DNA of 59,575 bases from an uncultured Planctomycetia bacterium (GCA_964506845.1 CAZDNS010000006.1:1-59575); one strand, 5' to 3'; shown: positions 5,495 through 47,401, numbered from the stretch's first letter. Numbers and translations are program-made. Notes: generated by a model not told the origin, from the sequence alone.

Positions 5495-8400
5495 TTACTT
5501 TGCTCCTAACTGCGCCTTGTATCCAGCCAACTGCTCTGAATAAACTGCTGAAACCTTTGTCGGGCTTAGGATATAGATATTACCTTCACCTGTTGTTACA
5601 ATATCTTCAAGTATCCATCCGCGGGCAACTCCTACAGCAACCGGCAGAATACCTATGTTAGCCGTATCCTGTGTCACTTTGGTATCCACCATTAGTTTCT
5701 TTATGTATGGATACGAGACCCAGCCCTCTAAATAAGTCTTGGTTCCTACCACAACTACATCGTCATCATCATTTGATTCAATTTGAGCAAGGGCTTTTTG
5801 TTTAAGAGATGCCACATCAACTGCGTCAGTTATTATGCTATATCCTTCACCTTTTATTTTTAAGCCTGTTGCTTGCATAAAACCTTCCAAATCCTCTATC
5901 TTACTTCCATCAATTACTATTTGGATTTTACCTTTTGTGGTCTGTATCAATCTCTCGAGAGAGATTTTAAAAAATAGCGCTTCTCCTATCATATGAGGCT
6001 GAAGCACAATTACCTTCTTAGAAATATGGGCAGTTGTTTCTTCTAATAACGGCCCATAATCAAAAGTAAGTGAAAAATCACTAAACGCCCAGTGCGTGAA
6101 TGAGCGTAGGTAATCAGGACCACCTGCCTTTGAGTCTCCTGAGCGCCTGCCTAAACCGCCGAAGGGCTGCCTGTCAACAACTGCGCCTGTAATCTTACGG
6201 TTAACATAGAGGTTTCCTACATAAAATTCCCTCTTTGCCTTTTCTATCTCACTCGGTGTTCGGGAATAAATCCCTCCTGTCAGGGCAAACGGTGACCTGT
6301 TTGCAATATTTAGCGCCTCATCAAAACTTTTAGCCTTCATAACTGCCAGAACCGGGCCAAATATTTCCTCCTGGCCTATTATTGAATCAGGCGGAACATT
6401 TTCTATAACCACCGGGTTTACAAAATATCCTTTGCCTTGAAATATCTCTGGCTTAACCAGAAAATGCGCTCTCCCGCCAAGTTTCTCTGCTTCTCCGATA
6501 TATTCCCATGTTTTCCTCTGGGCTCCTTCGTCAATTAATGGGCCCATATCTGTTCCAGGCTCTCTTGGGTTACCCACCTTTAAGGCACGAACCTTGCCCG
6601 CAAGTCTCTTTACAAACTCATCATATACCGCCTCGTGGACAATCACCCTTGAGCAGGCAGAGCACTTCTGGCCGCCATATCCGAAGCTAGATGCAACAAC
6701 TCCCTTTACAGCCGCATCAATATCTGCGCTCTCAGAAACAATAATGGCATTTTTACCTCCCATCTCAGCTAAAACCTGCTTGGGAGCCCTGTCAATGGAT
6801 GCAATAGCCGCATCCCTGTAAATACCAGAGCCTACCCCCCAGGAGCCGGTAAAGGTAATCATATCCACTTCTGGATGCTCAACAAGTTCTTTCCCGACTA
6901 TGCTACCCTCTCCCGGAAGATAATTGACAACCCCATCAGGAAGCCCTGCCTCTTTTAGAATCTCCATAAATTTGAAAGCCACAACCACAGACTGGCTGGA
7001 TGGTTTCATAATGACACTATTTCCTGCTGCCACTGCGCCTATTGTCATACCGGTAAGAATTGCAAGTGGGAAATTCCATGGCGCAATTACTGCTACCACA
7101 CCATTTGGCTCTCTTTTCCATCCTTCAGGTTTCCTTTTAGCGTCCTCTTTCTCCATCCGGACAGCCTCAAAGGCATAATAATTAATATAATCAATGGCTT
7201 CCTCTACATCACCCAATGCCTCCCGCCATGTCTTAGCCTCTTCTAAAACCATCCATGCGGCAAGTTCAAACTTTCGTTTTTGCATAATCTCTGCCGCCTT
7301 ATGAAGATACTGAGCGCGCTCCTTGGCTTTCTTTTCCTTCCAGGTCTCAAACGCCTGCCTGGCTATAGCAACAGTGTCTCCCGCATGTAATACAGCTGCC
7401 TTAGACACTATACCTATTATCTGTTCTGGATTGCTCGGATTAACTGACTGTATCCTGCCAAAAATATCTTCAGCAGGAATTACCCCTTTCCCGTCAATAA
7501 TCAGCGGATAGGGTTTATTACCTCTTTGCCTAATAGTATTTTCTACCTGTCTAATCGCATCAACCATTGCCTGACGGTTTTTAGGGTCAGAAAAATCTGC
7601 GGTTGGCTCATTTTTAAATCCCATCAGCCCGACTATTGAGGGACGCACCTCGCTGGATACAGTAATACCCCTGCGCATTGTGTTCTCTGTAATCGCCTTT
7701 GCCCTGACAAAATTAAATATGTAATCAGGCGTTATTTCTGTGATTATCCGCTTTATAGACAGGAGTTTCTCGGCTCTTATTGTGGCTCTTGTGCGAAGCC
7801 TTTGCTCCTCCTCTTGCGGCCCAGCAAATGATATCCACTCTATATCCTTATTTCCCAGAAGCGAATCAGCCGTTTCTGTCTGGTCAATAAGAGGTTGAAT
7901 AGCAGAAGAGGGAAGCTTCTCATCGCTGAGTAAGTGGGCTAACAATCTCGCCTCTTTAAGCGCCTGCTCCTTAGCATCAACAACCACTGTATTTCCGCCG
8001 GCAATAGCCGCTATCAACATCTCCGCCAGCATAGATAAACTTACATCCTCCTTGATAATAACCGCTCCCAGTCCTCGCGGCACATAAACATATTCGTTTG
8101 CCTCTCCGGGAAGGCTCTGAACCTTCTGCCAGCGCTCATCTGTCATATGTTCAAGCTGACGGGCATAGGTTTCTAAAATATCTATAATCCGGGCTACCTC
8201 TTTATCTGCCTCATCTACAGGTTTTGTCTGATGTGGCACATTTCCTCTTACAACCAAGAGCCCTGCTATAAAATCAATCCGCTGTTTTGAACCCTGTAAC
8301 CTCTCGGCAGTTTGCCTAAGTATCCTTGCGCGTTCCCTTGGAGTGGTATACCTAAATTTCTCAAATCCCTTAAATGCTACTTTAACAGCATCTGCTGCTG

Positions 8401-12494: not shown

Positions 12495-12523
12495 ATTATA
12501 GTATTATAGCGTAGATGTGTCAA
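12495..12523 (-). promoter_or_regulatory. Consensus sigma70-type promoter
   Basis: Minus strand has TTGACA (12523-12518), a 17-nt spacer, then TATAAT (12500-12495). Confidence 0.7.
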
Positions 12524-12641: not shown

Positions 12642-15377
12642 CTACTTCGCTCCTAACTGCGCCTTGTAGCCAGCCAACTGCTGGGAATAGGCTGCAGATA
12701 CGGCGGCTGCGGCAAGGACATAGGTGTTGGTACCGGGAAGTTGTTCAACAAGCTGTGATGCCGGAATACCCAGCGCTATACTGACCGCAACAGGTAAGAT
12801 ACCTAGATTCGCATTGCCTGTTTCCGGTTCATTCACCTGAAGTTTACGGATATCACCATATTGCTGCCAGTTAGTCAGATAATCACCTGTCCCTACTATT
12901 ACTATATCATTGTCGCTTTGTGATTCGACTGTAGTAAGGGCAGTGTTTCGTAACGCTTCTATATCTTTTGCATCGGTTACTATCTTGTAGCCTTCGCCTT
13001 CTTTGCTAAGACCGGTTAAACCAAGGAAACCGTCCATATCTTTTATCAAACTACCATCAATAATCACGCTGACTTTGCCGTTTGTACTTGCTATTAGATG
13101 TTCAAGATATGCCCTAAATCCCAGCGCCTCTCCTATCATATGAGGCTGAATGACAATGACTTTCCGTGCGTTATCTTGCGCCCTAGATAAGAGACTTGCA
13201 TTATAGTCATAGACGAGTAAGGAATCGCCTAACCAGGTTGCCAGTTTAGTGTTCATATCTTTTTCTAACTCTCCAAGCTCTAAATTTGTCAGCGAGGGTT
13301 TGTTTAACAGTTCATTATCTGCTAATTCCTTAAACTGTTCATCTGTTAATGCTCCGAGCCTTTCGTCAAACATATAAGTTGCAGCCTTATTACCACGGGC
13401 AGAACTGAACTGCCTGACTAATTTTGATGCTTGCAATACATTAATCTCCGCTCGCGTGGTGGTTTCTTTGGCTTTAGGTATATCTCCCAGCTCTTGTTGG
13501 GTCATTTTGAGTAAATCTTGAACTGTAAATGTAGTCTTATCTGGGAACGTTGCAAAATATTTCTTGATATGCCTAAGCCCTCTTGCCGGGGTACCTGCGC
13601 CACGTGCCAGGCGTGTGGTGGCAGGTTCTGGCAGTGCGGCGGCTACTGCAAAAAGTTGTGCAGTTTCAGGAATTATACCTGTAGGCCTTGTAGCCCTTTC
13701 TTCTTTAGGTTTATTCTTAACCAAGAAAGGCGAGTCCGGAGCCTGAAGGGCTCTAAGCAGTTTTGCCAACGGATAGGCTGCCTCTACTGTTCGCCAGTTA
13801 GTCCCATAAGGTTCAAATTGTCCTCCCAGGCAAGCCTTCTTAAATTCAAAATTAAATTTAAACATCCTCCGCCTGATTGAGCTATAATCTCTACTTCCAA
13901 AAATATCTTTAACGCCAGCTAATGCCTTACCATCATCGGATAGCGTGTATTGTAAGCCTACTAATATGGGATGGCTTTCCTTGTTGGCTACCGCATATTT
14001 AGCTGCCGTGGGAATAGCCGCCAGCCAGTGCGAGCCATTCATATCTCCCTGGATAATAAGGGGATTTATCCTTAAGAATTCATAGATATGGCTCATCAGT
14101 TTCATACTTCCCACCATAACAGGGTCATCCTTGCCGATATATTCTCCTCCTGCTAATATTCCCAATTTTGTAACCGAACTGCCTAACACCGGTTTATCTA
14201 AATAAACTTGCGGGTTCTCAATATCCCATCCTGCATTCTTTTTTCTCCATACCTGTTTGATATTAAAGCGGTCAGAATCAGCAAGATAAAGATAGACTGC
14301 ACTCTTATCTCTCTCGGCGTCAAGGAATATCCTTTTACTTGGAACATAGCCGGATTTCTTTAGCAATCTCGCCAAATTTTGACTATCACCATCTTTGCCG
14401 ACATAATCACCTGCCTTCATCTGTCGTAATGGCTTTAGGTATTCCTTAAGAAAACCATCTGCCCCATAGCAGTTTTTAACAAACTCTTGCTCAGCTGTAT
14501 CTTTTAATTGAGTTATGGCATCTGCTACATCAGCAAACAATTCCGGCAATTCTTCTATAGGAATATTACCATGTTCGTCAAATGCCTTTGCATCCCATAT
14601 CTCAAACACCAGGCCGTTTGCAAACTCACCTTTAGCTAATGCAGCATATACCCCTTCTCTTATCAGCCTGTTTAGGGCTGCGGGTCCCATTTTATCTCCG
14701 GCCAGTATGCCAAAAGTCCTCTCGCCGCCGGCTATATCAACTAAATAGCGGGCTGAGCCAATACCCTGTTGGGAGACATTCCCAGAAAAAGGATCAAGAA
14801 GGGCTGTTTCTTGTTTTGTACTTTGCCAATGCCTCCAGCCTTTTTCCATATTATCAACCATCTGCATATAGTCCTGAGGCATAACTTCTCTTAATATCTC
14901 AAAGAAGCGTCCGCTAAGCTGGGAATAAAAATAAGGATTGGCCATAGCTAGCTTTGCTTCTTTACCTGCAAAATCCTGACCGCGGCCATAAGGTTTCTTG
15001 GGCTTCTTAAATCCCTTTGCAGGGTCAAACTTACCGGTGTTGCCTACCATAGAGGCAAGATATCCTCGCGTAAATGCTAAGAACGATAATTGATGGCCCT
15101 GTGCGCTGTTGCGCGATTTATCTCCTAACATTAAAATATGGCTATCATCTCCGATACTTAAAGTTATTCCTCTTCTTAAGCGCTTTTGATCCTTTGCGCC
15201 AATAATATTACCGTCTGTAAGCATTTCTTTTTCTTTGGCTTCTAGAACCGTTGCCAAATCAATCGCTAACATATATTGCGGCGTAAAGTTATGCCCGAAC
15301 ATTCCTCCCATATCGGCTTTATCATCAGTAACTGACAATAACTCACCTGCGGCTACTCTTGCCTCTACCTCATCCAT
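12642..15377 (-). CDS. FBP aldolase/phosphatase (class V FBPase)-like module + Arg-rich/winged-helix linker + shared C-terminal domain; no leader of its own
   Basis: ORF track (911 aa). It lies in the same frame as the upstream 466-aa ORF, separated only by TAG plus 26 sense codons. No good SD sits at normal spacing before its ATG. Confidence 0.85.
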   Translation of the reverse strand: MDEVEARVAAGELLSVTDDKADMGGMFGHNFTPQYMLAIDLATVLEAKEKEMLTDGNIIGAKDQKRLRRGITLSIGDDSHILMLGDKSRNSAQGHQLSFLAFTRGYLASMVGNTGKFDPAKGFKKPKKPYGRGQDFAGKEAKLAMANPYFYSQLSGRFFEILREVMPQDYMQMVDNMEKGWRHWQSTKQETALLDPFSGNVSQQGIGSARYLVDIAGGERTFGILAGDKMGPAALNRLIREGVYAALAKGEFANGLVFEIWDAKAFDEHGNIPIEELPELFADVADAITQLKDTAEQEFVKNCYGADGFLKEYLKPLRQMKAGDYVGKDGDSQNLARLLKKSGYVPSKRIFLDAERDKSAVYLYLADSDRFNIKQVWRKKNAGWDIENPQVYLDKPVLGSSVTKLGILAGGEYIGKDDPVMVGSMKLMSHIYEFLRINPLIIQGDMNGSHWLAAIPTAAKYAVANKESHPILVGLQYTLSDDGKALAGVKDIFGSRDYSSIRRRMFKFNFEFKKACLGGQFEPYGTNWRTVEAAYPLAKLLRALQAPDSPFLVKNKPKEERATRPTGIIPETAQLFAVAAALPEPATTRLARGAGTPARGLRHIKKYFATFPDKTTFTVQDLLKMTQQELGDIPKAKETTTRAEINVLQASKLVRQFSSARGNKAATYMFDERLGALTDEQFKELADNELLNKPSLTNLELGELEKDMNTKLATWLGDSLLVYDYNASLLSRAQDNARKVIVIQPHMIGEALGFRAYLEHLIASTNGKVSVIIDGSLIKDMDGFLGLTGLSKEGEGYKIVTDAKDIEALRNTALTTVESQSDNDIVIVGTGDYLTNWQQYGDIRKLQVNEPETGNANLGILPVAVSIALGIPASQLVEQLPGTNTYVLAAAAVSAAYSQQLAGYKAQLGAK
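12645..13220 (-). other. Shared C-terminal domain (CTD), copy 2
   Basis: 'LVYDYNASLLSRAQDNARKVIVIQPHMIGEALGF..VSVIIDGS..GYKIVTDA..IVIVGTGDYLTNW..ANLGILPVAVSIALG..YSQQLAGYKAQLGAK-stop'. Confidence 0.85.
13278..13625 (-). other. Arg-rich segment + helical/winged-helix-like linker
   Basis: 'PATTRLARGAGTPARGLRHIKKYF' followed by 'FTVQDLLKMTQQELGDIPKAKETTTRAEINVLQASKLVRQF'. Same position (before the CTD) and same Arg-rich style as the linkers in the other megaproteins, but similarity is weaker. Confidence 0.4.
13743..15350 (-). other. FBP aldolase/phosphatase catalytic module with insertions
   Basis: 'DDKADMGGMFGH', 'SIGDDSHILMLGD', 'LLDPFSGNVSQQGIGS', 'GILAGDKMGPAA', 'LAGGEYIGKDDPVMVG', 'IQGDMNGSHW'. 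These are colinear with the motifs I recall from archaeal bifunctional FBP aldolase/phosphatases (KADIGS..GHH, VGDD, DSFSGNV, ADKTEPGA, GKYVGKDDPVM, GWMRGSH). Confidence 0.75.
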
Positions 15378-15381
15378 AAAC

Positions 15382-15456
15382 GGGTCAACCTGTGCCTCTT
15401 TGGGTGCTTGTCTAAAAAGAGGGCTTTGCGCCTTTCTTAAAGGGTCAACCTGTGCC
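15382..15456 (-). repeat. 15-nt direct repeat flanking the read-through spacer
   Basis: gggtcaacctgtgcc occurs at 15382-15396 and 15442-15456, exactly 60 nt apart. It encodes AQVDP twice in the read-through frame. Confidence 0.8.
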
Positions 15457-15458
15457 TA
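15456..15458 (-). other. Single in-frame TAG separating the 466-aa and 911-aa ORFs
   Basis: 15378-15455 is 78 nt (26 codons) with no further stop. It translates as AQVDPLRKAQSPLFRQAPKEAQVDPF, directly in frame with MDEVEARV... Confidence 0.9.
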
Positions 15459-16856
15459 TGCTGCAAATGGGGCAATATAAGGTTGGTCATGCTGATGAGT
15501 GATCATAACTTTTGCAAGGAAATCTGCCAATTCTCTCTCTGGGCCCAAAGCCGGAGGATTAATAGCTACGTGATCAATTACTTCTTCCTCTTCTCTAGGT
15601 ATGACTCCGCCTAATTCACTCTGCCAGCCATAGACCACAACATGAGCAATCCCTTCTTTAGGGGCTCTCCTTGCCTCTTTCAATGTTACCGGCTTTGTAA
15701 CCACATAACGTTCGCCGTTAGCACCGCCGGGAACAAAATTGACATCGTAAAACATACTGGCAACCCCACCCACAGCATCTGCTCCGCTCTGGCTTCTGCA
15801 TATGAATGTGGGGTTAAGCGTCCGTAAATTTCCTTCCTCTCCGTAGGCTGGTTGATAGACAACGCTCACTATCGGCTCAGTTGAAGTTATGGTACTGCCC
15901 TCTACAGTATAAATACCAGTAATAAGAAAATCATTGGGTTGGCTTGCAAGTGCCAGAAGCTCCAGACTCTCATCCTTAGAGGAATATTTTTTACCATCCG
16001 CGTCTTCAAAGGCTGAGGACACTTCAAATTCCCAGACAGGTCCGTCAAATTTTCCCTTTAAAACATCCTCGGTTTTTCTGACTATGGCTCTAAAACCACG
16101 GACACCCTTCTTGCCCTTAGGGGTAAACCCCAGTTTTTTCAGTGGCGTAGACCCGGGCATAAAAAACTCGTGATAGAGTTTAATATTGGCTGCTCCGATA
16201 CCGGCGCCCACCATTTTTGCCATAACCACAGGCTCAGAACCACGTTCGGTTATGGAATGTGCTTGGTATTTCACTCTAAGCACTTTGGCTAAATCAGTCA
16301 GACTCATAGAGGCTATTTCTATTTCCTCCTTTAGCAAGCCAAGTTCCTGGGCTTTTAAAACTCCCTCTCTCATTGCCTCAAGTATCAGTCTCTGCACCGT
16401 GGCATTTACTTCACCATACCTGTGGGTCACATGAATATCTATATCCGTGGCGCCAAAATCCTTTACTACGGCACCTAATAGCTTTCCATCGGATATATAT
16501 TCGTCTAATTTCTTCGTGATTGCTTTCACCACTGCATCGGGAATCTGCTCAACTGGTTTTGCCAATAACTCAGCTATTCTATATCCGTGAATATCATTGG
16601 TGAAAAATCCCTCTTTCTGTCCTTCCGGCTCTTTTAGTTCCGTTCTTATCCTGCTGTCTAAAACTAATCTTGCCAGTTCTGCTGTTTTTCCATTGGCCTG
16701 TTTTCCTAAAGTGAGTGGCGGTGCCAATTTACTCTTTTCCAAACCGCTGGTAGCGCTTGCATTTGCGGTGTCAAAAAAAGTGGGTGAAACTACTAAATTA
16801 AAAGACACCAAAACCGTAACCAGGATGTGCCAGAATTTTTTATACTCTTTACCCAT
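15456..16856 (-). CDS. Leader + divergent FBP aldolase/phosphatase-like module (Y-x-G-K-DDP motif absent); no CTD
   Basis: ORF track (466 aa), with AGGAGGGG 6 nt upstream of the ATG. Leader is MGKEYKKFWHILVTVLVSFNLVVSPTFFDTANASATSGLEKSKLAPPLTLGKQANG. The body aligns with FBPA/P: 'GATDIDIHVTHRYGEV', 'SEPVVMAKMVGAGIGAANIKLY', 'GFRAIVRK', 'LELLALASQP'. Where 'GKYVGKDDP' is expected it reads 'AYGEEGNLRTLNP'. Confidence 0.8.
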   Translation of the reverse strand: MGKEYKKFWHILVTVLVSFNLVVSPTFFDTANASATSGLEKSKLAPPLTLGKQANGKTAELARLVLDSRIRTELKEPEGQKEGFFTNDIHGYRIAELLAKPVEQIPDAVVKAITKKLDEYISDGKLLGAVVKDFGATDIDIHVTHRYGEVNATVQRLILEAMREGVLKAQELGLLKEEIEIASMSLTDLAKVLRVKYQAHSITERGSEPVVMAKMVGAGIGAANIKLYHEFFMPGSTPLKKLGFTPKGKKGVRGFRAIVRKTEDVLKGKFDGPVWEFEVSSAFEDADGKKYSSKDESLELLALASQPNDFLITGIYTVEGSTITSTEPIVSVVYQPAYGEEGNLRTLNPTFICRSQSGADAVGGVASMFYDVNFVPGGANGERYVVTKPVTLKEARRAPKEGIAHVVVYGWQSELGGVIPREEEEVIDHVAINPPALGPERELADFLAKVMITHQHDQPYIAPFAA

Positions 16857-16898
16857 TTTAAACCCCTCCTGTTTTTAAAAGGTTAAAAGTTAAACAAA

Positions 16899-16929: not shown

Positions 16930-17322
16930 TTAAAAGCTTTTGTAAAATTTCCAGAGAAGACGCCCTACTTCTTTACGTAAAGCCTGTAATGTTTCATAAT
17001 CCTTTTGTTTTAGATAGCCTAATCTTAAAGAGAAATCCAAAAGATATGTTACCTCTGCTAATGAACCCAAGGCAATAGATGAGAACTGTTTTATCTCACC
17101 CTTACTCTGTCTTCCTGAGCCTTCTACTAAATTTGTAGGAACTGATAATGCCGCTCTTCTCAATTGCGATGTAATGCCGTATAATTCGTCTTTTGGAAAA
17201 TCTTTAGTTGCAACATAAACTTTATAGGCTAAATCATCCGCCTTTTGCCACACGATTAATCTCTTATAGCCTTTTTCACTTGTGACTTTTGACTTAAGAC
17301 TTGCGTATCCTTTTTCTTCCAT
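16930..17322 (-). CDS. Four-helix-bundle protein (23S rRNA intervening-sequence protein family)
   Basis: 'YKRLIVWQKADDLAYKVYVATKDFPKDELYGITSQLRRAALSVPTNLVEGSGRQSKGEIKQFSSIALGSLAEVTYLLDFSLRLGYL' matches the characteristic pattern of this family. Confidence 0.85.
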   Translation of the reverse strand: MEEKGYASLKSKVTSEKGYKRLIVWQKADDLAYKVYVATKDFPKDELYGITSQLRRAALSVPTNLVEGSGRQSKGEIKQFSSIALGSLAEVTYLLDFSLRLGYLKQKDYETLQALRKEVGRLLWKFYKSF

Positions 17323-17397: not shown

Positions 17398-17799
17398 CTA
17401 AAACGGCATATCTACTTCAGTATGAAGCGCCTTGATTTTCGCAAGTTTTTCCCTCTCTACCTTTGCAATAAAATTATAGATTCGGCTTCTGGAGGGATTA
17501 TCTATATCCAGAAACTGGATGCCGCTTTCTATCTTATCTCGCTCATTTTGAACAGAGCCTCTCTCTATAAACGGCCTCTGCCACACATCCTTGCCTTTAA
17601 CCCTTAAGGGTAAAAATCTGCTATCAAAATTAAGTTCTATGTCTAAGGTATCGCCTGTGTTAATACCCTTATCGGATATAATCCTAATGCCTCCTGAGCT
17701 CATATCCACGCACTTTACAATAAATGCGGCCCCATTCTCATCCTGGCATCTAATATTGAACGAGTATCTGAAACGCCTGTATTTTCTATGTTCTCTCAT
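17398..17799 (-). CDS. PilZ-domain protein, paralog 1
   Basis: ORF track gives 17398..17817. The internal ATG 17799 gives MREHRKYRRFRY..., the same length (133 aa) as paralog 2. It carries the RxxxR ('RKYRR') and D-x-S-x-x-G ('DMSSGG') PilZ signatures. Confidence 0.8.
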   Translation of the reverse strand: MREHRKYRRFRYSFNIRCQDENGAAFIVKCVDMSSGGIRIISDKGINTGDTLDIELNFDSRFLPLRVKGKDVWQRPFIERGSVQNERDKIESGIQFLDIDNPSRSRIYNFIAKVEREKLAKIKALHTEVDMPF

Positions 17800-17810
17800 A
17801 ATTCTATCTC

Positions 17811-17838
17811 TTGACAATGTTCATTTTTATGCTATACT
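17811..17838 (+). promoter_or_regulatory. Sigma70-type promoter of the AbrB/RelE-like cassette
   Basis: TTGACA (17811-17816), 16-nt spacer, TATACT (17833-17838). AGGGGG Shine-Dalgarno precedes ATG 17896. Confidence 0.6.
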
Positions 17839-18518: not shown

Positions 18519-21500
18519 CTACTTAGCTCCAAGCATTGCCCTGTATGAATTCAACTGGTCTGAATAACCTTGTGGAATATTTCCTGTTGGTATTAACGCG
18601 AAGGTTGTATCGCTAAGTTTTTTAACAAGCCCTTCTATTGGCGCATTTAAAGCTATGCTACGGACAGCAGGGAAAATACCTAAATTAGCCGTGTTTTCTG
18701 GAGCTTCATTTACCTGCAGGTTAAACAGATTTTCTCTCTCCAGTCTCCACCCATCTAAATATTCCTTAGTTCCAGCTCTAACTATCTTGTTATATTCTCC
18801 TGAACCCATAAGCTCTTCTATTCCCCTCTTGGTCTTTAACTGAACTTTTCCAGAAGAAACCAAATCTTTCAAACCTGCCAATTCTAAATAGCTATCTATT
18901 TCTCCCTCTTGTATTCCCTCTTTATCAACAACAACCGTTATTCCTTCATCGCTCGCTAACAAACTATTGATAGAAAGTTGCAAGCCAAGCGCCTGCGCCA
19001 GCATATGGGGCTGTAGAACGATAAGATTCCTAAATCCTTCTTTAGGTTTTTGAAAATTGGTGGCGTAATTAAACGTTAGCCAGTTATCAGTATTAATAAT
19101 GGTTTGGGCTCTATCCATAATAGAATTATAGTAAGCTGCGAATAATAGTAACGGGCCAAGCGGCGCTGGTGTGAGTGCTGCTGGCCACGTTGATAATATT
19201 GCTTCAAACTCACTCTTCGCATTACTTAAGACATTTATCACACCTTGAGGATTAGTATTAATAAGTTGCTCTGCCTTAAAAAGTTTCTGCATATGGTTTT
19301 CAAACTCCCAGCTTATATAAATAATGTTGGCTTCTTCGTTGTAAACGAGCGGTTCCTTTTGAGTCTTTGGACCCAAGAATATGTGGGCAGAGGTAATTGT
19401 CTCTGTTTCTGGTAATAGTTTAAGAAGAAGTTTCTGAATTTCTGAATTGGCAAACCAATCAGGCATAGTATCAACCTCTAAACCTCTCTGGTATTGAGCC
19501 TGCTTTCTATCAAGGATTTTATCTCTGTCAATTAAAGATGGGTCGTTTGTTCTCATTTTGGCAATATAAGCAGCTGTATTCGGCATATCTGGTTCTTCTG
19601 TGTCTCCTTTTGCTAATTCAAAGAACATCTTCGGATGCACCTCACCAATCGCATTGCTCAATATTGCACTTATTCTGGCATCAGCAGTTGATGGATAGGA
19701 TTTAATCCTTGCCTCGGTGCCGGATGGTCTGATTATCTCCCAGGTACCGTTACTAAATTCCATATAAACTGCATCCCCTGTAAAAAGATAACGTTGTAAA
19801 TCATCTATTTGTTTTAATAAATCCTCAAGTGCCTTATCATCAGTTACAGCCTTAATCTTTGCTACCATAACCTCATCCTTTACAAGGACTTCTTTTAGAA
19901 TCGCCTTCACATCATTTAATGTGATATTGCCACTTTCTAGGGCAAATGCTAAACTCAAAAAGAAGGCAAAATTGTTATCACGCCATTCAAAACCAACATC
20001 CAACATTTCTTTCCTTCTTTCAGGCGTAGCCTGCGCAGTAGCTAAGACATCCACAAGGTCTACATCTGTCCTGAGTTCTGCTGTATTTTGCATCTGTTTT
20101 TGTTCAATAATCTTTTGGAGCATATTGCTTAAAGATATATCTTGCAAGAATTCTGCATCTTGATATAGGCCTGTTTCATTTACACCGCGCTTTAAAGCAG
20201 CCTCCCTTGCTTTATTGAACCTTTTACTTATCATAATAAACGTAAGAACGCTTGCTTCAACAGCATTCTTTTCCCTCCAGCTTAAATACCTGCGCAAACC
20301 ATCTTCTGTAGTAAGTAGTTCTGTTGAGCCAACTACCATACCGCCCGATTCTTCTCCGGCGAACAATAACCGTGGATTATAGCCAAGCCTGATAGGATTT
20401 CCAAAAATATCGTGTATAACCACCATTCTTGGCTTAAGCCCAAGTTTATGCCTTACTTCATTTATCATAAGCTGTAATTCTACTTTCCGCATAATGGAGC
20501 CTATCTCTTTAAAACCAACTGGAACTTGAACCACAGGTATATCTTCACCATTAGATAATTCAAGCCATGCACTTGAAGAAACGGTTGTTTTTATTGAAAA
20601 AAATGTGGCTGCATTGGGATCTTCAATATTCTGGCTCCATTTTCCTTCTTCTTTAAGTTGTTCTATATAGGCATCCTGAATCTGAAGGAACGTCTGATTG
20701 GGCACATAAACCGCCAAAATCTTCTCATCTGAAAGAACTAAGTATGCTATATTTAAATGTTCTAATCTCTGCTTGGTTTCTTTATCATTTTTCTCCACCT
20801 GCATTAAAACAAATCTGTCTCCATCAGGGTCTGTGGTAGGGTATACAAAACCTATTGGCTGATTCAGCATAAAAACAGGTAATTTAGACGCTGCAACAAC
20901 CTGAAGTAAACTTACATCCTCGGAAATATCGGCCATTTTTGGTCTATAATAAGCAAGCAGATTGCTATTGGCAAGTTTTCGATAGGGCACGCCCAATCTT
21001 TTGAGTAGACCTTCCTCTTCTTTTGCATATATTTTAAATTTAATATTAACTACATCGTTTTCTTTGTCCTGTCTTGGTGTTTCGCCTATATTTGAAGCAA
21101 GCTCTCTTTCGGAAATTGTTGCCACTAACACGTAGGTTAAAGGAAGGTTTCCAAAGAATTCGTCAAGCCTTGTACTGATTTTTTCAACATATCTCTTTAC
21201 GAATTCATCTGGCGGCTGTTTCTGGTTAAAATCTGTCATACCCGTATCGCCAAAGAAAGAATCGGGTATTGTGCCTGTCCAGACTATTTTACCAACAGTC
21301 TCTCTATTAAAAACCTTCTCAAATACACCTCTAAAAAACTGGTAAGCAGAGCCCCTTGCTTGGTCAAATCCAATCTTCAAGCCATTAGCCAATGCCTCTT
21401 GGACGGCTTGTATATTTGAAGAAGTAACATATGAGCCCCTTAAATATTTTGCATATTTATCGCTCACGGGTATATTGTTAGCATCAACTGGACTTTCAAT

Positions 21501-38625: not shown

Positions 38626-41600
38626 TTATATCGCCAGCTTCATATTCATTTTCTTCATAGCGGTTTTGGTTATGGCTACAGGTTTTTTCAAAATTCGCAT
38701 CATTTGTTCTTCGCTAAACAATGGAATCTTTTTCCCATCATAAAGCTCAACCATATTCAGCAAATCCACCATCAGATGGTCCTGACCCAACTGCTCATCA
38801 TCTATCCTGCAGAAGGATATTATTTTTTTCTTGGCATATTCCATAAGATAATCATAGATTCTTATGTAGTTACCTATGGAGCTTATGCTGAAACCTATCT
38901 GGTCTTTCCCTTCGCCAAGTTCAAACCCCGCCTGTTCTAAAAACTCAATGGCAGATTTCAGTATCTTTGGATTGTGCGCCATATTTAACTGAATTGCCAC
39001 TTTATCTCTTCCATGTTCGTTGATTGACTTTTTCGTTGCCCTTAGAAACATTATGAACACTTCGTTATATCCGGGCGACATATTCTTAATAAGCCCTCTA
39101 AAACCTAATGGCGAATTTGTGGTTGACCTTTCATATCTATCGCCAAATTTAAGACCTTTAAGCAATACTTGACCACCTACAGTGCTACCTTTGAAAAAAT
39201 CTGGCTCCTGCTGCGAGGTCTCAAAAACCACTAATTCCCCCTTTTCTGTTGCTTCTCTTACTGCCGCATCAATGTGTTCTTTGACCACTTTATTAATAAA
39301 ATCTTGAATGGAGCTCGCCTCATATCTCCCTAATAACTCTTCCACAGCTCTAACGGTATCTCTCTCTACGGCTTCGTCAATTACTATCCCCTTTTCTTTC
39401 TGAAAAGCCCTCAAGTCATTATAGGCCTCTTCGAATGTCTCTTTTGCAAGTCCTGATAATTGTCCAGTTTTGTAGAGATAAATAGCAAAAGCAAAAGGAT
39501 GTAAACCTAATTCGACAAATATATCATCCATGCTTACTACTTTAACATTTACCTTCTCAGGCTCTGCAGTATAATCTATATTTTCAGGAGTAAATATAGT
39601 GTTGTCTACAATCTTCTCGGTATAGAGTTTTATGCTCTTTTCTAAATACACAAAACCTCTCTGAAAATCAACCACATAGTCTCTATTATCTTCTAAAGCC
39701 CTGAAAGGATCCTGAGCAGTATCAACAAGAATAGCGGGTTTTCGCCAGTTTACTCTTAACCACTCCATGACAGGAGAATCCTCTCTAACACCACTTGTTA
39801 TAATCCCGCTTGCCTTTGAAAGCTGTATAGCAAGAATGCTTTCTTTTTTAGCATCTGTCTCTGTAAAATCCACATCTGGACCCAAGATAACGATATCCCC
39901 CTCAACAATCTTTGGCACTTCAACTTTTTTACCATCCGGCAATTTTTCTAAATATGTTAAATCTCTATTGTTTTTTATAAAAACTACTCTGCGTAATGCA
40001 GCGCCCTTTTGCTCCTCTCTAAGTTTTTTGCCTGTTACTATCTTAGTTAGTGGTCCGACATCCTTTGAATCTATATAATTTGTTTCTAAGTGGCTATCTG
40101 CTGTGAGGCTGACAGTCTGACCAAATGCAGGGATACTAGTTCCAACAGAATCCAATACTGCGACTATCTGCATAGCGGCTCTTCTGGCTTCAGGGGTGGG
40201 TTTTCTTAGCAAGTTTATTATGGCATTACCGCATAAACCCAGTGTAAAATCCACCAATGCCTCTCCTGTCTTTGGGTCTGTAAATTCCTCTTCAATAACT
40301 CTCTTTGCCTCAAGCGCGCTATGTAATATAGCGTCTATAACCTCTGGGTCTCCTTCGTCAAAGACTGATATCTCGCTGACCTTATCTGTTCCTGGAATAT
40401 ATATTTTTGTCTTTTTGAATCCCTTCTCATCCCTGTCTGCCTTTTTAACGGACTGGGTAAGGTCATTTGTCCCATATGAAAAGAAGGTATGGACATTGTA
40501 TTTCCTGGCAAAATTAGCCAGAATTCTTGCGTAATCAGCTGCCAGAGGAACGTTATTTCCAAGCTCAAGCATCATACCTATATATGGAGGAAGCTCTATC
40601 TCACCTGCTTCATAAAGTTTTGCTATCCTATCTAAACCCTTCTCTAAATCCTCGGGCGACCTTAAGAACACAAAGAAGAATCCAAACGTTCCCACATTTG
40701 TCCCCTTTGTGGCTTTTATGGCATCGTTCATAGCCTTAAGTTGAATATCCACGGCATAGATATTCTCATCCCTGACCTCAAGGCCTGTGCCTCTGTCACC
40801 CACCATAGAAGCCCTCTCCTCATTGTAAAATAACTCGGCACCAATCAAATCTTTTATAATCTCGTTCTTTTTAAAATCCCTTGCCCTGACTAAAACCAAT
40901 TGTTCTGGTGTAACTGTTCTTGCCAAGCCAATAAAATGTGCCTTTAGTTTATCTCTCAGATATGCCTCTGCTGTGGGATAGCCTGCTATCTTTTCTCTGA
41001 TTTTAGCCTGTATATCCTTTCGCGGTCTTAACTTCTCTACATCCGCCATCATTCTCTTTTGCCTTGCTATTTCTGCTGGTCCTTGGGGATTTTCTAATAG
41101 GTAGAGTTGCTTTTTATTGGCTCTTAAAATAGCCAATTCCCAGAGTTGTTCTCTTATCCTGTTATTCTTATGTAATTTTATACCCCGTAAAAGCCCCATA
41201 GTGTACTCAACTGGTCCAACAACCTCTCCTCCTTCGGAAACGGCAAAGTTCCTTATTGTCTCTTCATTATCCAACAGGTCTTCCACATTGGCTATTATCC
41301 ATTCTCGCCTTTCCTCTCTCGGCACCTCAAGCCATTCGCCGTTAATCTCTATCTTAGAAGGCCCGAGCTCAGTCTTATCCAAGATTATATTAAGTGCACC
41401 TTCAAGTTCCTCTTTTGCTGTAATCAACTCCGCTTCTAAACCTTCTAACTCTTTTAAACGTGCCAAAATCTTCTCCTTATTATTGAGAATCTGTAGATTG
41501 TCATAGGCCTCGCCTGCCCTGAAATCCACTCCGATAGCTAAAAGTGCCTCTTCTATTCTATCGAGACTGAATCCATAATAACCGCTTAGTTTTTTCTTTA

Positions 41601-44600
41601 ACTCTTTAATAAATTTGGGCGCCCAGAGACTAAGCTTTGAGACTCGTTCTGCATCGAGAACAGATGCCAGTATAAGACCTACCTTTGTCTTAAAATGCTG
41701 CCATCTGGTTGGCGAGTAAAATATAATCTCTTCAATAATAGGATATTTACCCAAGTATATTCTTCCCTGATTTGCATCTACAGTGAGTTCTATCTCTGAT
41801 TTTTTAACCTTGTTTAAAATATCCTTATCCTCAGAAAGCAATGCAGGATTTATTACTAACCCCACAACTGCAGGAATTCCCCTTTCTCCGCAAAAGATTG
41901 TGGCATGGGAGGTTTCAGAGCCAGTTAGGGTAACCACGTAACTTGCCACCATCATCGCTCTGTCATATTCAGGTTTTGGGTCAGCTGCCAGCATACCCAC
42001 AGTCTCTCCCGCATTCTTTAATAAATCTACCACCTCTATAAACCTGTCTATCTGTCGCGATAAAATTTCAGACACAAAAACATTAACTTCGCTTGTAAAA
42101 AGGTGATTTGAAATATCTATATTCGTCCTTATGTCAATAAAAATAGTAAGTAAAAGGGATTGCCTGTCTTGGGATACCTGTCTCTTGGCCTCAGGGCTTA
42201 GCTCACCTTCAACTGGTAAACTTAGCTCGGTTAATAAGTTTTTAAGGCCTCGTTTAAATCCTTCTTTATTTTGGACTTTATCTGGTAAGGTTAATTCTTC
42301 TATAGCCCTATCTATCTGTGATGCAGAAACCCCTACTAAATCCTCTCTTCCTATAAATGACAAAATCTTCTCAAAATCCTCTTTATTTATATCTCCTAAG
42401 TCTGCAAAATCCTTTTCTAACTCAATCTCTTTAATCCTCTTTGCCCTTTTATAACGCCAGATTATGTCTTTTAGTTCCTCATCTGTAAACCATTCTTTAT
42501 CCAGAGCCTTCTTAACATTTTCGAAATCCTTAAAAGGCTCAGAATATCTTCCAGGTAAGAGTGCTTTTAAAATCGCAATTCCCTCTTGAAGCTTTCTTCC
42601 AACGCTTTGAGTTAATGCTTCGGCTACATCCCTTTTGCTTTTTTCATCAATGTAAATTGCCCTACCTGCTCCTGCATTTGAGGTAGCCACACCTTCTCCG
42701 AATTTCTTGGCATGCTCTATCTGCTCTGGGTCCGGAATTGTTCTTTTAAGCCTTAGATTTTTCGGGTCATCCTTATCCAAATCCGGAATAGCAACTGCTC
42801 GCATCTGGACAGTATTAAAACGCAGTCTTCCTTTATACTCGTAATATAAACATTCGGTATCAACGGTCTTTCCAAGCGCCCCTTGTATCTCTACAATCCA
42901 TCTGGCTATTTCAATGGCTTTCTGTTCTATATCCGATTCATATAAACTCTCGGTTATGCAAAAGCGTTCCCTCATTTCTTGAGGAACTTCTATTCCCTCA
43001 GGATGTTCTTTTGTCATCATACGCTCTTTTTTGCCACGGTGTTTAAAATTAACTACCGCCTTTCCTGTTTTAAGGTCGATATAAACCTCAAGCCTGTCAG
43101 GTTCAACCTTTCCTTCAACCAAGAATGGACCAAGTCCGTATGTAGCATCAAAGGTTATAGTCAAGGTGTTATTGCTAAAACCTGTCATCTTACTTGCCTT
43201 TTTCACAGTAAAACCTGTGATACAGAATTTACTCTGTCTCATAGCCTGTACGCCAAGACCCATCCCAACATTAAGCGGATCTACAATTCTGCTTCTGATA
43301 TCAGTCAATGATTTTCTTAGACGTGAAACTTCCACAGGTGCTTCCTGTTCAATTAAAGAGAGTATCTTTAGCAATCTATAAGTGGAGACAAACTGCTCCT
43401 TTCTTTCGCCCTGGTCCTTAATTGCCTTATTTAACCTTAAAATGACATCTCTGGTAGACGCAGTTTTTCCTTCCTTAATCTCAATCCAAGTTATGTTAGA
43501 ATTTGCCTCGTCTGACTCAAAAGCATTTATAACCAAGTCTCTATCTAATGTTTCAACAAACCTTCTCTTCAAATCTATTTCGCTAATCCCATCCGTCTCT
43601 TTCTGCTGAGTCTTCCAAATCTCAAATGTAGTATTATGCTTAGCTTCTACCTTATTAACCAAATCAGCTATATTTTCTCTTACCCATCTATCGTAAGCAG
43701 AGTTATATCTCTTTTCTAATATAGTTATAACCGTTTGTAAATCCCGCTTGTCTATACTCTGGGTAAGCCACTCATCAAACACCAAAAGGTCTCTATATAC
43801 AATTGGCATTGACTTCCATAATGAAGCGAATCCCTTTAAAACATTAGCAAAAAGCGCTTCAAATGTGACATTTAAATATGTATCCTGCAAGCCTGCAGCT
43901 GCGCCAATTGGACGGTCTTCATAATAAGAGGAACTTCTTACAGCCATAAGTAAGCCAATGAGATTAGTTACTTCTTCTTCATTTAAAATCTTGCCTTCTT
44001 TAGCTCCTTCGAAGAAATCCTTGACTTTTATTTCTTCCTGAGAATTCTTAAGTTCCATAAGTTTTTCTATCTTATCTTTTGTTATAATTCCTTCCTGAAC
44101 AGCAAGCAGTAAAAACTCGGCAAATAATTCATCTGCAAGCGATTCTGGAACTGTGGCACTTTGATGCCAACCGCTTATCAATCCTTCGGCAATGCTTGGC
44201 TCATAGGCATCCTGCGCATCAAGGTCTATAATAACCTCTCTGATTTTTTTCAACATACTTTCGTTCTCTACTGTATTAAGCCGCAAAAAGAAATTATGCC
44301 CTGCGCCAGTAATGCCGAATACGCTCGGAACAGGCGGTTTATCCAAACCCATCCTTAAAAGACGCTTGGCAACAATCTCAGTAAGGAAATACCGCACCAT
44401 CTTAAAAAGGTTATGCACCTTACCGCCAACTGTATCAAGCGTGCTTAACTCCTCAGGCACATCCGCTCTTTGAACAAGATAACCTGCCTTTGTCTTCTCA
44501 ATAGCCTCGGCTAATGCTTTGCAGTCAACTATGCGGTGGGCTAAAGGTGTATTTTTTAGGTCGGGTTGGGATAATATATATCTCTCTAAAGCTTGCTGCT

Positions 44601-46095: not shown

Positions 46096-46125
46096 ATAAA
46101 AATAGGGCCAGACCCTTTTTATTTT

Positions 46126-46723
46126 CTATTGTAATCTCTCTAATTCCCAATTCCTGAATTCCATATCCAACAACCCCGTGCGGTTAAATAGAAGCGTCCC
46201 CTTTTTCCTTGTTTTAAGTGCTTCTATTTCCTCTGCGCTTGCCATTCTAAGTTTGCCAGAACTAACTAAATTGGCTAAGCCCGACTGCTTTAAGAAACCC
46301 TCTGTTTTTCCTTGCTCTATTCCTCTTTCATCAATAGAAAATCTGATACCCTTGGTTTCTGATAACCAGTGAAAAACCTAACTCATCTAACTCTCTATTT
46401 TGCTCTTTTAAAAGAATAATACCCTGTCTAATTTGCTCTGCTATTTGCTGCAAATCTGTTGTTGTCCTAACCACTTTTTCCGCCAGTTCTATCATTACCG
46501 CAGCACCCAGCGCACGTCTGGCTGCATTTAATTTTCCATCAGCACCATTTCTACGGCTACTATGCGCAGAGGTCATAGGAGGCGCAAGGCGAGATTTTTT
46601 CTTCTGGTTTAAGGAATAGGCAAAGACGGGGTCTATAAGGGATGTGGCGATAAAAACCTCGGCAACAATTAGCGCTATTAGCTTTTTAAAATAATTTCCA
46701 ATGTTATTACTTTCGGGCAACAT
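46126..46723 (-). pseudogene. Cargo-less family member: leader fused almost directly to the CTD, frameshifted and 3'-truncated next to the HEPN gene
   Basis: Frame A (track ORF 46331..46723) gives a leader, MLPESNNIGNYFKKLIALIVAEVFIATSLIDPVFAYSLNQKKKSRLAPPMTSAHSSRRNG, then 'GIILLKEQNRELDELGFSL', which aligns with CTD 'NLIVLQPHMLAQALGLQL'. Frame B (46377-46129) gives 'HWLSETKGIRFSIDERGIEQGKTEGFLKQSGLANLVSSGKLRMASAEEIEALKTRKKGTLLFNRTGLLDMEF', which aligns with CTD 'SLLASDEGITVVVDKEGIQEGEIDSYLELAGLKDLVSSGKVQLKTKRGIEEL..YLDGW'. The last ~75 CTD residues are missing. Confidence 0.65.
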
Positions 46724-46999: not shown

Positions 47000-47401
47000 T
47001 TAAAACGGCATATCGATTTCGGCATGAAGCTCTCTCATTTTTTCCAGTTTTTCTCTCTCGACATTTGTAATAAAGTTATAGATTCTGCTTCTGGAATGAT
47101 TATCTATGTCCAGAAACTGGATGCCGCTTTCTATCTTATCTTGTCCATTTTGAATAGAACCTCTGTCTATAAACGGCCTCTGCCACACATCCTTGCCTTT
47201 AACCTTCAGGGGTAAAAATCTGCTATCAAAATTAAGTTCTATGTCTAAGGTATCGCCTGTGTTAATATTCTTATCGGATATAATCCTAACGCCTCCGGAG
47301 CTCATATCCACACACCTTGCAGTAAATATGGTTTTATCCCCGTTTTGACATTTAATATCAAAAGAGTATCTGAAGCGTCTGTATTTTCTATGTTCTCTCA
47401 T
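47000..47401 (-). CDS. PilZ-domain protein, paralog 2
   Basis: 133 aa, with 106 of 133 residues identical to paralog 1 by manual alignment. It has the 'RKYRR' and 'DMSSGG' motifs. Confidence 0.8.
   Translation of the reverse strand: MREHRKYRRFRYSFDIKCQNGDKTIFTARCVDMSSGGVRIISDKNINTGDTLDIELNFDSRFLPLKVKGKDVWQRPFIDRGSIQNGQDKIESGIQFLDIDNHSRSRIYNFITNVEREKLEKMRELHAEIDMPF

Follow-up and report, generated by a model that had tools for sequence, protein, structure and literature searches.

A Probable Recent Nonsense Mutation Interrupts a Conserved Leader-Bearing FBP Aldolase/Phosphatase-Like Gene on a Putative Omnitrophota Contig

Organization of the Locus

The window (the whole 59,575-nt stretch of DNA that was analyzed) carries on its minus strand two open reading frames (ORFs) that share one frame, with one TAG and 26 sense codons between them. 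The upstream ORF (15456..16856, 466 aa) encodes a leader and an FBPase-like module with degenerate motifs; the downstream ORF (12642..15377, 911 aa) encodes an FBPase module with catalytic motifs and a family C-terminal domain (CTD). The stop at 15456-15458 reads TAG on this strand and the next 26 codons translate as AQVDPLRKAQSPLFRQAPKEAQVDPF. A preliminary description of this DNA had reported the arrangement, with a leader but no CTD on one side and a CTD but no leader on the other; coordinates and sequence confirm it, including the TAG and the length of the intervening stretch. On the coding strand of the 59.6-kb window, this is the only case of two long open stretches in the same frame being split by a single stop. 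The comparisons described below establish that 12642..16856 is one gene, not two, for a protein of ~1404 aa. Its features, in the direction of transcription, are the following:

16857..16876, minus strand: ribosome-binding region of the real start, AGGAGGGG followed by 6 nt and ATG (read from the sequence)
16692..16856, minus strand: family leader, aa 1-55, with a basic N-terminal end, a hydrophobic core of ~15 residues and A-N-A followed by S
15492..16649, minus strand: module 1, FBP aldolase/phosphatase fold, catalytic motifs lost (Pfam PF01950, 58 bits)
15456..15458, minus strand: in-frame TAG at the place of the ancestral Gln467 (CAG in the ortholog, Q or E in the homolog column; TAG also in a Logan contig)
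15442..15457, minus strand: repeat copy 1, AGGCACAGGTTGACCC, 16 nt, which takes in the AG of the TAG; the ortholog does not differ in the sequence that follows the stop
15378..15455, minus strand: 26 codons of conserved coding sequence (inter-module helices), gapless in 47 homologs
15382..15397, minus strand: repeat copy 2, AGGCACAGGTTGACCC, 16 nt, EADID changed to EAQVD; a product of 5 clustered substitutions in this lineage
15375..15377, minus strand: ATG of a conserved internal Met494, with no Shine-Dalgarno sequence at working distance (M in 42 of 47 homologs, L in 5)
13641..15344, minus strand: module 2, FBP aldolase/phosphatase fold, catalytic residues kept, large insertions (Pfam PF01950, 93 bits; alignment to 1umg)
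14115..14147, minus strand: GEYIGKDDPVM, the Tyr, Schiff-base Lys and Asp-Asp motif of module 2 (alignment)
12645..13244, minus strand: family CTD, ~200 aa, ending in YSQQLAGYKAQLGAK (identity to family members)
12642..12644, minus strand: true gene stop TAG, then G; the aligned C-terminal end (LGAK) matches the paralogs, whose stops are TAA or TAG

The Two FBPase-Like Modules

Both modules pass the Pfam domain threshold for FBPase_3 (58 and 93 bits versus 25), while their scores against the NCBIfam equivalog NF041126 (56 and 86 bits) lie far below the cut-off of 520. Module 1 aligns to residues 29-332 of 1umg, with K232, D233 and D234 replaced by T, L and N, and reads NLRTLNPT where the S. 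tokodaii FBP aldolase/phosphatase (FBPA/P; 1umg/3r1m) reads YVGKDDPV. The other catalytic motifs are likewise missing from it, and the same degenerate motifs are found in all homologs. In the same alignment, module 2 retains GEYIGKDDPVM, KADMGG..GH, GDD and GDK, and its DDKADMGG.FGH, GDD and GDK are conserved across homologs. The catalytic residue set (N-terminal Asp/His, Asp-Asp, Asp-Lys and Tyr-x-x-Lys-Asp-Asp), whose roles we take to be those described for 1umg, 3r1m and 3t2b, is thus present in module 2 and absent in module 1. Judged by these motifs, module 1 would be a catalytically dead pseudo-enzyme module and module 2 appears active. The proposal that two FBPase-fold modules are present, the first lacking and the second keeping the Y-x-G-K-DDP segment, is therefore upheld by the Pfam matches and the 1umg/3r1m alignments. 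An AF2 model of an intact homolog (P0002, pLDDT 80.8) matched 1umg and 3r1m in Foldseek with E ~1e-17 and TM 0.79-0.83.

The relationship to the bifunctional FBP aldolase/phosphatases (PF01950; NF041126; 1umg, 3r1m, 3t2b) consequently includes the fold, with Foldseek TM values of 0.71-0.83 normalised to the target, and, for module 2, the Asp/His N-terminal motif, GDD, GDK and Y-x-G-K-D-D. In contrast to the known PF01950 enzymes, which are single-module proteins of ~360-400 aa, the fold occurs here in tandem: the first copy is dead, and the second, which has large insertions, looks active. A further difference is that the tandem unit has a signal-peptide-like leader before it and an extra domain after it. 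Known FBP aldolase/phosphatase enzymes are cytoplasmic.

Leader, C-Terminal Domain and Start Sites

The hydropathy of the leader reaches its maximum of 2.15 over aa 11-25. The leader is 56% identical to the N-terminal end of a 2133-aa gene of the window and 72% identical to that of the nearest ortholog (P0001, see below), and matches the N-terminal end of a 6681-aa gene more weakly; a second leader variant is common to a 2295-aa gene, the left partial gene and the 6681-aa gene. By appearance it is a signal peptide or signal anchor, and export of the protein is predicted accordingly. Among relatives of the CTD, P0001 is 67% identical to it and the homolog P0009 56%; within the window, the end of the 2295-aa gene reaches 50% and the 6681-aa gene 35%. 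It has no Pfam match, even at E = 5, and its AF2 model (pLDDT 73) is a generic alpha/beta domain for which no PDB match better than E = 4e-3 was obtained. A search of a large protein collection with the CTD as query returned no match, probably owing to a word-index limit, since P0001 should have been found.

The real start is preceded by AGGAGGGG at a spacing of 6 nt, and the paralog start at 45027 by a similar arrangement. At the ATG at 15377, only GAGG is present, 17 nt away, which agrees with the earlier statement that this ATG has no Shine-Dalgarno sequence at the 6-nt spacing. Its proposed role as a start codon did not hold, as Met is kept at this position in 42 of the 47 homologs. Sequence conservation thus identifies the ATG at 15375..15377 as an ancestral internal Met and not as an evolved start.

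Homologs Across the Junction

Each of the 47 homologs crosses the junction within one HSP (about q70-1072). In the column of the TAG, Gln is found in 30 homologs and Glu in 17, and none has a stop; the comparison of orthologous loci that the preliminary description had called for therefore returned a sense codon throughout. An exhaustive HMMER search of 1.84 billion representatives identified 46 relatives. Every homolog with a source name belongs to Omnitrophota or Omnitrophica, which, together with the nearest ortholog, points to an Omnitrophota origin of the window. This ortholog (P0001; MAG DeMMO3_15, GCA_020052955.1, Candidatus Omnitrophota bacterium) shares 78% identity with the read-through product over its full length (100%), exists as a single 1382-aa ORF with leader and CTD, and carries CAG at the position of the TAG. 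The predicted ~1404-aa read-through product, with the order leader, pseudo-FBPase, FBPase and CTD, accordingly has an intact counterpart. A leader is present in nearly all full-length family members and, on the basis of these alignments, the architecture of leader, dead module, live module and CTD is conserved in Omnitrophota.

Neither the 47 homologs nor the HMMER search of representatives contained a naturally split relative or a gene boundary near this codon. One homolog, P0050, at first resembled a natural split as it starts exactly at the internal Met. It is a fragment cut off by a contig edge: only 55 nt separate its gene start from the contig end, and the 54 nt upstream remain open and show homology. 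Strain variants were searched for with the DNA around the stop, leaving the first two bases of the codon free: genome contigs yielded only the 78% ortholog and metagenome contigs yielded nothing. A search for related loci in metagenomes returned one relative with 63% identity, which is intact.

The 26 codons downstream of the TAG had been described as a spacer flanked by a direct repeat. They are instead conserved coding sequence in all 47 homologs (consensus ..V.PLR..Q.HLF.RAPKEADIDP.), and in the AF2 model of the intact P0002 the equivalent residues lie in and between confidently modelled helices (444-457 and 473-484, pLDDT 80-89). The repeat itself is real, although it measures 16 nt (15382-15397 and 15442-15457) rather than 15 nt and brackets no inserted element. 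AGGCACAGGTTGACCC is found nowhere else in the window even at two mismatches, with 0 matches expected by chance, and the T of the TAG lies outside it. Most homologs carry EADIDP at the second repeat site, where P0001 has GCA GAT ATT GAT TCG and the window GCA CAG GTT GAC CCG; the repeat exists because five clustered substitutions turned the second site identical to the first. An origin as an insertion or duplication footprint was rejected, as there is no gap at this place in the homologs or in P0001 and a deletion between the repeats would leave the TAG. A link to the adjoining bAvd/IVP-like gene (diversity-generating retroelement) was also discarded, the five clustered changes not being adenine-specific.

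Authenticity and Age of the Mutation

A Logan contig of run SRR4343426 (SRR4343426_23581) matches at 100% identity for 2783 nt, TAG included, and probably derives from the same reads as the deposited contig. Exact-protein and cluster look-ups for a second sample returned both halves as singletons whose sole occurrences are the NCBI contig and Logan SRR4343426; a look-up of the neighboring 2295-aa protein in other samples and a literature search on the run accession returned nothing. No interruption occurs in approximately 38 kb of adjoining giant ORFs (6681, 2295, 2133 and at least 1768 codons). These intact ORFs and the Logan contig with the same TAG make a random assembly or sequencing error less likely, and the base call presumably represents the living population.

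Both halves are under purifying selection: relative to P0001, dN/dS is 0.15 for the upstream and 0.21 for the downstream half, and the 911 downstream codons contain no further stop or frameshift. In a relative-rate test over columns with at least 80% conservation in the other 45 homologs, changes found only in the window and changes found only in P0001 numbered 2 versus 3 upstream and 5 versus 5 downstream. Relaxed selection after the stop, which is expected only for an old mutation, was not seen in the downstream dN/dS or in the downstream counts. As the downstream half shows no decay, the mutation must be recent or the region still expressed, and the lack of extra damage to this lineage in the relative-rate test argues for a recent change.

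Zero downstream decay is in itself equally compatible with efficient read-through or with a wrong base call.

Origin of the Interrupted Gene

Programmed stop read-through, a recent nonsense mutation, a sequencing error and a deliberate two-part split had previously been left unranked. Of these options, an ordinary recent nonsense mutation, a single C-to-T change at the conserved Gln467 codon, is very probably the correct one, whereas programmed read-through and a designed split are both contradicted by the homologs. The split is ascribed to one C-to-T transition because the codon is CAG in the closest ortholog and TAG in the window. In this scenario, CAG would have become TAG at Gln467, inside the structured helix that joins both modules. 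The ribosome would terminate at the TAG and release a 466-aa fragment of leader and dead module, and the catalytic module and the CTD would be made only at the level of background near-cognate amber read-through. Such read-through mostly inserts Gln, and insertion of Gln at the TAG would restore the wild-type protein; the only other route to module 2 would be inefficient re-initiation at the internal Met. The mutation may be fixed in the population or may represent the majority allele of a polymorphic population. What a nonsense mutation explains less well is the loss of module 2, which might be costly: the gene cluster resembles an otherwise complete set of gluconeogenic enzymes, and no other FBPA/P module in it has catalytic residues. 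In addition, the organism is represented by one sample only, and the total lack of downstream decay fits efficient read-through or a wrong base call equally well.

An artefact of base calling, consensus or amplification, or the assembler's choice of a minority allele, is an unlikely source of the T; the organism would in that case have CAG and an intact 1404-aa gene. Such an error would agree with the undecayed state of both halves, with the single sample and with the fact that one substitution brings back a universally conserved residue. However, the same base stands in the unbroken Logan contig, and the ~38 kb of adjacent giant ORFs without stop or frameshift indicate a very low error rate of the contig; consensus substitution errors are rare in short-read assemblies. 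Decoding of the TAG at a useful rate by a suppressor tRNA, weak RF1 or programmed read-through, so that a short leader-plus-module-1 protein and the full-length enzyme are both made, is regarded as very unlikely. The perfectly preserved downstream half and the identity of the replaced residue are in its favor, since near-cognate or supE-type decoding of UAG inserts Gln more often than any other amino acid. Support also comes from in-frame stops under purifying selection reported in bacteria, including alternation of CAG and TAG at one codon, which serves as a worked example (Belinky et al., 2021; PMC7918605). The argument for read-through in that study rests on stops common to at least two genomes, while the stop discussed here is absent from all 47 homologs. 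Moreover, TAG terminates ftsK and two paralogs on the same contig, both of these paralogs ending in TAG at conserved LGAK C-termini with the same +4 G as the split TAG. There is no stimulatory RNA structure around the TAG (fold z = -0.23), no tRNA and hence no suppressor tRNA in the 59.6-kb window, no match to an Rfam element in the window, and no other in-frame TAG in ~55 kb of coding sequence. That the amber codon is tolerated and decoded as Gln at a meaningful rate via a suppressor tRNA or weak RF1 is highly improbable; if true, one gene would give rise to a short exported pseudo-FBPase module and a full-length enzyme in a set ratio, and would represent a bacterial chromosomal case of functional read-through.

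The least probable explanation is a functional split into two genes, yielding an exported accessory module and a cytoplasmic FBPA/P-CTD enzyme that starts from the ATG at 15377. The stop does lie between the fold modules, upstream of the first catalytic motif of module 2 (DDKADMGG), an in-frame ATG follows 78 nt after it, and a promoter-like TTGGCA-17-TATGAT (10 of 12) is present at 15530..15502. Yet the region contains 13 such promoter-like matches, modestly above the shuffle mean of 8.9 (sd 2.3), and the ATG is an ancestral internal Met without a Shine-Dalgarno sequence within working distance. Stop and ATG are both situated inside confidently predicted helices, and neither protein collection contains a homolog with a split at this place, the apparent exception being the contig-edge fragment. 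The downstream product would also be devoid of the leader, which is found in nearly all full-length members of the family.

A recent nonsense mutation would make the locus a young pseudogene or truncated allele. It resembles the in-frame stops in prokaryotic genes surveyed by Belinky et al. (2021; PMC7918605) in the change from CAG to TAG at a conserved Gln and in the dN/dS of the flanks, which is well below 1, and differs from them in that the stop is unique to one contig. With phages that recode TAG to Gln (Borges et al., bioRxiv 10.1101/2021.08.26.457843) and with pyrrolysine genes it shares an in-frame TAG where relatives have Gln. Unlike in these systems, the TAG occurs once, is a true stop elsewhere on the same contig, is accompanied by no suppressor tRNA in the window and by no conserved context or structure, and is itself not conserved.

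Relation to Giant Proteins of Omnitrophota

Long and giant proteins of Omnitrophota that combine signal-peptide or TM N-termini with glycolytic and gluconeogenic domains, among which FBPase, TIM and pyruvate phosphate dikinase are named, are described in two preprints (West-Roberts et al., 2023, bioRxiv 10.1101/2023.11.21.568195; 2026 preprint 10.64898/2026.06.07.730766). The window appears to stem from the same phylum and holds a row of such genes, although the present gene, at 1.4 kaa, is small by comparison. It likewise has a signal-peptide-like leader (hydropathy, A-x-A motif), which predicts export, followed by central-metabolism domains (FBPase_3). One neighboring gene is PEP synthase/PPDK-like, another is a fusion of GDH-like and PutA parts, and the 6681-aa gene combines GDH, PEPCK, HAD, enolase, iPGM, TIM and ADH. 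Together, the row of leader-bearing genes carries PEP synthase/PPDK-like, PEPCK, enolase, iPGM, TIM, FBPA/P, GDH and PutA domains. The pair of leader and CTD found on this contig, in P0001 and in P0009 did not appear in a term search of the two preprints.

The split itself matters little, as it is a single-base loss-of-function allele of a kind common in metagenome-assembled genomes. For annotation, it follows that 15456..16856 and 12642..15377 should be treated as one disrupted gene and not as two proteins, and that a leaderless FBPase-CTD architecture should not be deduced from the 911-aa "protein". Of greater interest than the stop codon is its background: a conserved tandem of an apparently dead and an apparently live FBPA/P module behind a signal-peptide-like leader. 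While the class has already been described in the preprints, this tandem adds detail to the question of why central-carbon enzymes in Omnitrophota are built into giant proteins that appear to be exported.

Structure of the split gene

All large genes of the window are carried by the minus strand. The preliminary description had reported that one of them is divided by an in-frame TAG into a leader-bearing half and a half bearing the C-terminal domain (CTD) of its family, and rechecking of the ORFs, frame, TAG, spacer codons, start signals, modules, leader and CTD bore out all of its sequence-level statements. The elements are as follows.

15456..16856, minus strand: upstream ORF, 466 aa
15456-15458, minus strand: in-frame TAG, followed by 26 sense codons (AQVDPLRKAQSPLFRQAPKEAQVDPF) before the downstream ORF
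12642..15377, minus strand: downstream ORF, 911 aa, in a frame identical to that of the upstream ORF
15442-15457 and 15382-15397: 16-nt perfect direct repeat AGGCACAGGTTGACCC

The start of the upstream ORF is preceded by AGGAGGGG and 6 nt, while the nearest candidate signal for the ATG at 15377 is GAGG alone, 17 nt off. Both ORFs match Pfam FBPase_3 (PF01950; 58 bits upstream, 93 bits downstream) and the solved FBP aldolase/phosphatases (FBPA/P) 1umg and 3r1m. The second FBPA/P-fold unit (module 2) retains DDKADMGG.FGH, GDD, GDK and GEYIGKDDPVM; in the first (module 1), NLRTLNPT stands opposite the enzyme's YVGKDDPV and the remaining catalytic motifs are missing. As in characterised FBPA/P enzymes, both modules share the fold, with the catalytic residues in module 2; unlike those single-module enzymes, the protein is tandem, bears a leader and a CTD, and scores far under the NCBIfam equivalog cut-off.

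Homologs encode one uninterrupted protein

With the read-through product as query, 47 homologs were retrieved, all from Omnitrophota where a source is named. This set takes in fragments covering just part of the gene, and in 47/47 a single unbroken HSP runs over the TAG position within the equivalent of residues ~70-1072. The closest homolog, P0001 (Ca. Omnitrophota MAG DeMMO3_15, GCA_020052955.1, contig JAGVOB010000228.1), is a single 1382-aa ORF with 78% identity over 100% of the query and shares its leader and CTD with the split gene. Across the multiple alignment, the 26 “spacer” codons are gap-free and well conserved (consensus ..V.PLR..Q.HLF.RAPKEADIDP.), the residue at the TAG is Gln in 30 homologs and Glu in 17, and at the downstream ATG 42 have Met and five have Leu. 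An AlphaFold2 model of P0002, an intact homolog (mean pLDDT 80.8, pTM 0.82), matches FBPA/P crystal structures (TM 0.79-0.83, normalised to the target) and places the TAG-equivalent Gln448 and the ATG-equivalent Met475 in helices 444-457 and 473-484, respectively (block pLDDT 80-89). Alignment conservation and modelled helices therefore indicate that what the TAG breaks is no linker between genes but one protein, in a region that is structured and conserved.

HMMER was also run exhaustively against 1.84 billion representative proteins with the 300 residues directly after the TAG; of the 46 non-self relatives retrieved, P0050 alone begins exactly at the internal Met. It was rejected as a naturally split relative: 55 nt separate its gene start from the end of the contig (2055 nt), and the 54 nt ahead of that start are open, reading AQSYLFTRAPKEADIDST, which makes P0050 a truncated fragment. 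A natural split at the TAG site was found in neither protein collection (47 homologs; 46 HMMER relatives).

Across Omnitrophota, the tandem of a dead and a live FBPA/P unit is kept as a block of ~1000 aa (homologs P0001-P0047; P0002 model). In proteins of 1.0-2.2 kaa, it either follows a signal peptide with no other partner or is joined to TIM, GAPDH or alanine-dehydrogenase domains.

Origin and interpretation of the internal stop

When aligned codon by codon, the P0001 locus (L002:9979-14127) has CAG opposite the TAG of the window, and a single C-to-T transition therefore suffices; the split gene is one ancestral gene with one CAG-to-TAG substitution at Gln467 of the ancestral protein. The alignment contains no further stops or frameshifts, and dN/dS against P0001 is 0.15 over the 466 upstream codons and 0.21 over 886 aligned downstream codons. 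A relative-rate test counted the changes unique to either the window or P0001 at columns whose conservation in the other 45 homologs is 80% or more, and gave 2 vs 3 changes (window vs P0001) upstream and 5 vs 5 downstream. Judged from these comparisons, neither half has begun decaying, which implies that the stop is young, that the gene is still expressed, or that the base is wrong.

The last of these, a TAG that is an artefact or a minority allele, is improbable. Run SRR4343426 has a Logan contig that matches the window at 100% identity along 2783 nt, TAG included, and ~38 kb of neighbouring giant ORFs show no stop and no frameshift, so that the contig is accurate. However, both halves are singletons known just from the NCBI contig and this Logan run, and genome and metagenome contig searches and protein look-ups found no other samples or strains with the locus. 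Both assemblies probably derive from the same reads, so that the data for the TAG are not independent. Bacterial genes with in-frame stops are well known, cases of CAG/TAG alternation at a single codon among them, and the read-through argument made for them needs a stop common to several genomes (PMC7918605). In contrast, the stop of the split gene is not shared in this way, and functional amber suppression is very unlikely. TAG is a normal terminator in the contig: it ends ftsK (52932) as well as two paralogs, whose stops come after the conserved ...LGAK terminus and are followed by G, as is the internal TAG. At the stop, 141 nt of RNA fold no better than shuffles (z = -0.23); the window contains no tRNA and no Rfam match, and a scan of its six frames revealed no second case on the coding strand in which a lone stop separates two long open stretches. 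Signatures of a designed split, with the downstream product begun at Met494, are likewise absent. Such a product would be without the leader, which nearly all full-length family members have. A promoter-like match lies at 15530..15502 (10/12), and the region has 13 such matches against a shuffle mean of 8.9 (sd 2.3), a modest excess.

Of the four options raised in the preliminary description, namely read-through, recent nonsense mutation, sequencing error and a two-part split, the nonsense mutation is the least exotic. No signature of read-through or split was seen in the homologs, the RNA fold, the tRNA content of the window or TAG usage. Most likely, the split gene is an ordinary recent nonsense allele of one conserved gene.

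The direct repeat

The repeat had been described as 15 nt long; it is indeed perfect, but extends over 16 nt, and it is unique in the window with two mismatches allowed. The first copy is ancestral, as the sequence after the stop codon is the same in the ortholog. The second differs from ortholog L002 by five substitutions in 12 nt (GCA GAT ATT GAT TCG to GCA CAG GTT GAC CCG), at a site where most homologs read EADIDP, and all five bring it to identity with the first copy 60 nt upstream. The two sites already had AGGCA in common, and the pattern resembles the outcome of a single short templated event (for instance a micro-conversion or a template switch) rather than that of independent changes. 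That the copies bracket an insertion was rejected, the 26-codon stretch being gap-free in homologs. The T of TAG lies outside the repeat, the second copy being preceded by G (GAG), and a deletion between the copies would leave the stop in place; no functional link between repeat and stop was seen.

Genomic neighbourhood

Window positions 1-45027 carry five co-directional minus-strand genes with related signal-peptide-like leaders, the split gene among them. Neighbouring features are:

38626-45027, minus strand: 2133-aa gene, PEP synthase/PPDK-like, with family leader, without family CTD, ending in TAA
minus strand: 6681-aa gene with GDH, PEPCK, HAD, enolase, iPGM, TIM and ADH domains, in a frame different from that of the preceding 2133-aa gene
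minus strand: 2295-aa gene with GDH-like, proline dehydrogenase and P5C dehydrogenase domains
left window end, minus strand: partial gene with GltD-like Fer4_20 and Pyr_redox_2 domains
12645-13244, 5498-6142 and 18522-19166: family CTD, ~200 aa, end motif ...YS.QL.GYKAQLGAK
16930-17322, minus strand: 130-aa 23S rRNA intervening-sequence protein/bAvd-like four-helix-bundle protein (Pfam matches), directly upstream of the split gene
46331..46723, minus strand: 130-aa ORF with family leader, then double TAA

The leader consists of a basic N-end, a 15-residue hydrophobic core and A-N-A|S. The N-terminal 55 aa of the split gene are common to the 2133-aa gene, with a weaker likeness to the 6681-aa gene; the latter also shares a second leader variant with the 2295-aa gene and the left partial gene. 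A leader-like segment lies ~70 aa into the listed 6681-aa ORF, which therefore probably starts at an internal Met. The last ~200 aa of the split gene, the CTD, are common to the 2295- and 6681-aa genes; a Pfam search gave no match for this domain, and its model suggests a generic Rossmann-like alpha/beta domain without a specific PDB neighbour. Taken together, the domains of the five leader genes make up a nearly complete route from PEP to FBP, with Glu/Pro catabolism in addition, on fusion proteins that appear to be exported.

Just downstream of ORF 46331..46723, a CTD-like fragment (GLANLVSSGKLRMASAEEIEALK) occurs in another frame, and 46100-46723 has the appearance of a family member that decayed or suffered an internal deletion; on the adjoining plus strand (45272-46095), a nucleotidyltransferase/HEPN-like ORF pair was identified by eye. 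No sign of a diversity-generating retroelement was seen beside the bAvd-like gene. Segments 17399-17536 and 47001-47138 are 85% identical and lie in small paralogous ORFs (17398..17817 and 47000..47401), PilZ-like by eye, each upstream of a leader-bearing gene or gene remnant.

Consequences for the protein and its family

Ribosomes would stop at the TAG and release a 466-aa fragment of leader and dead module, whose leader would probably bring it to the membrane or through it. The catalytic module and CTD would be made solely through background near-cognate UAG decoding. Such decoding mostly inserts Gln, which at this codon would regenerate the wild-type protein. Polarity on the next gene should be limited, because that gene has its own perfect sigma-70-like promoter match within the 259-nt gap between the split-gene stop and the start of the 2295-aa gene:

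12523..12495, minus strand: sigma-70-type promoter match TTGACA-17-TATAAT, 12/12

The split gene is a member of the Omnitrophota class of multi-enzyme proteins with a signal peptide or TM segment, in which FBPase, TIM and pyruvate phosphate dikinase domains are on record (10.1101/2023.11.21.568195; 10.64898/2026.06.07.730766). Its two ORFs should be given a joint annotation, as a single gene that is disrupted.
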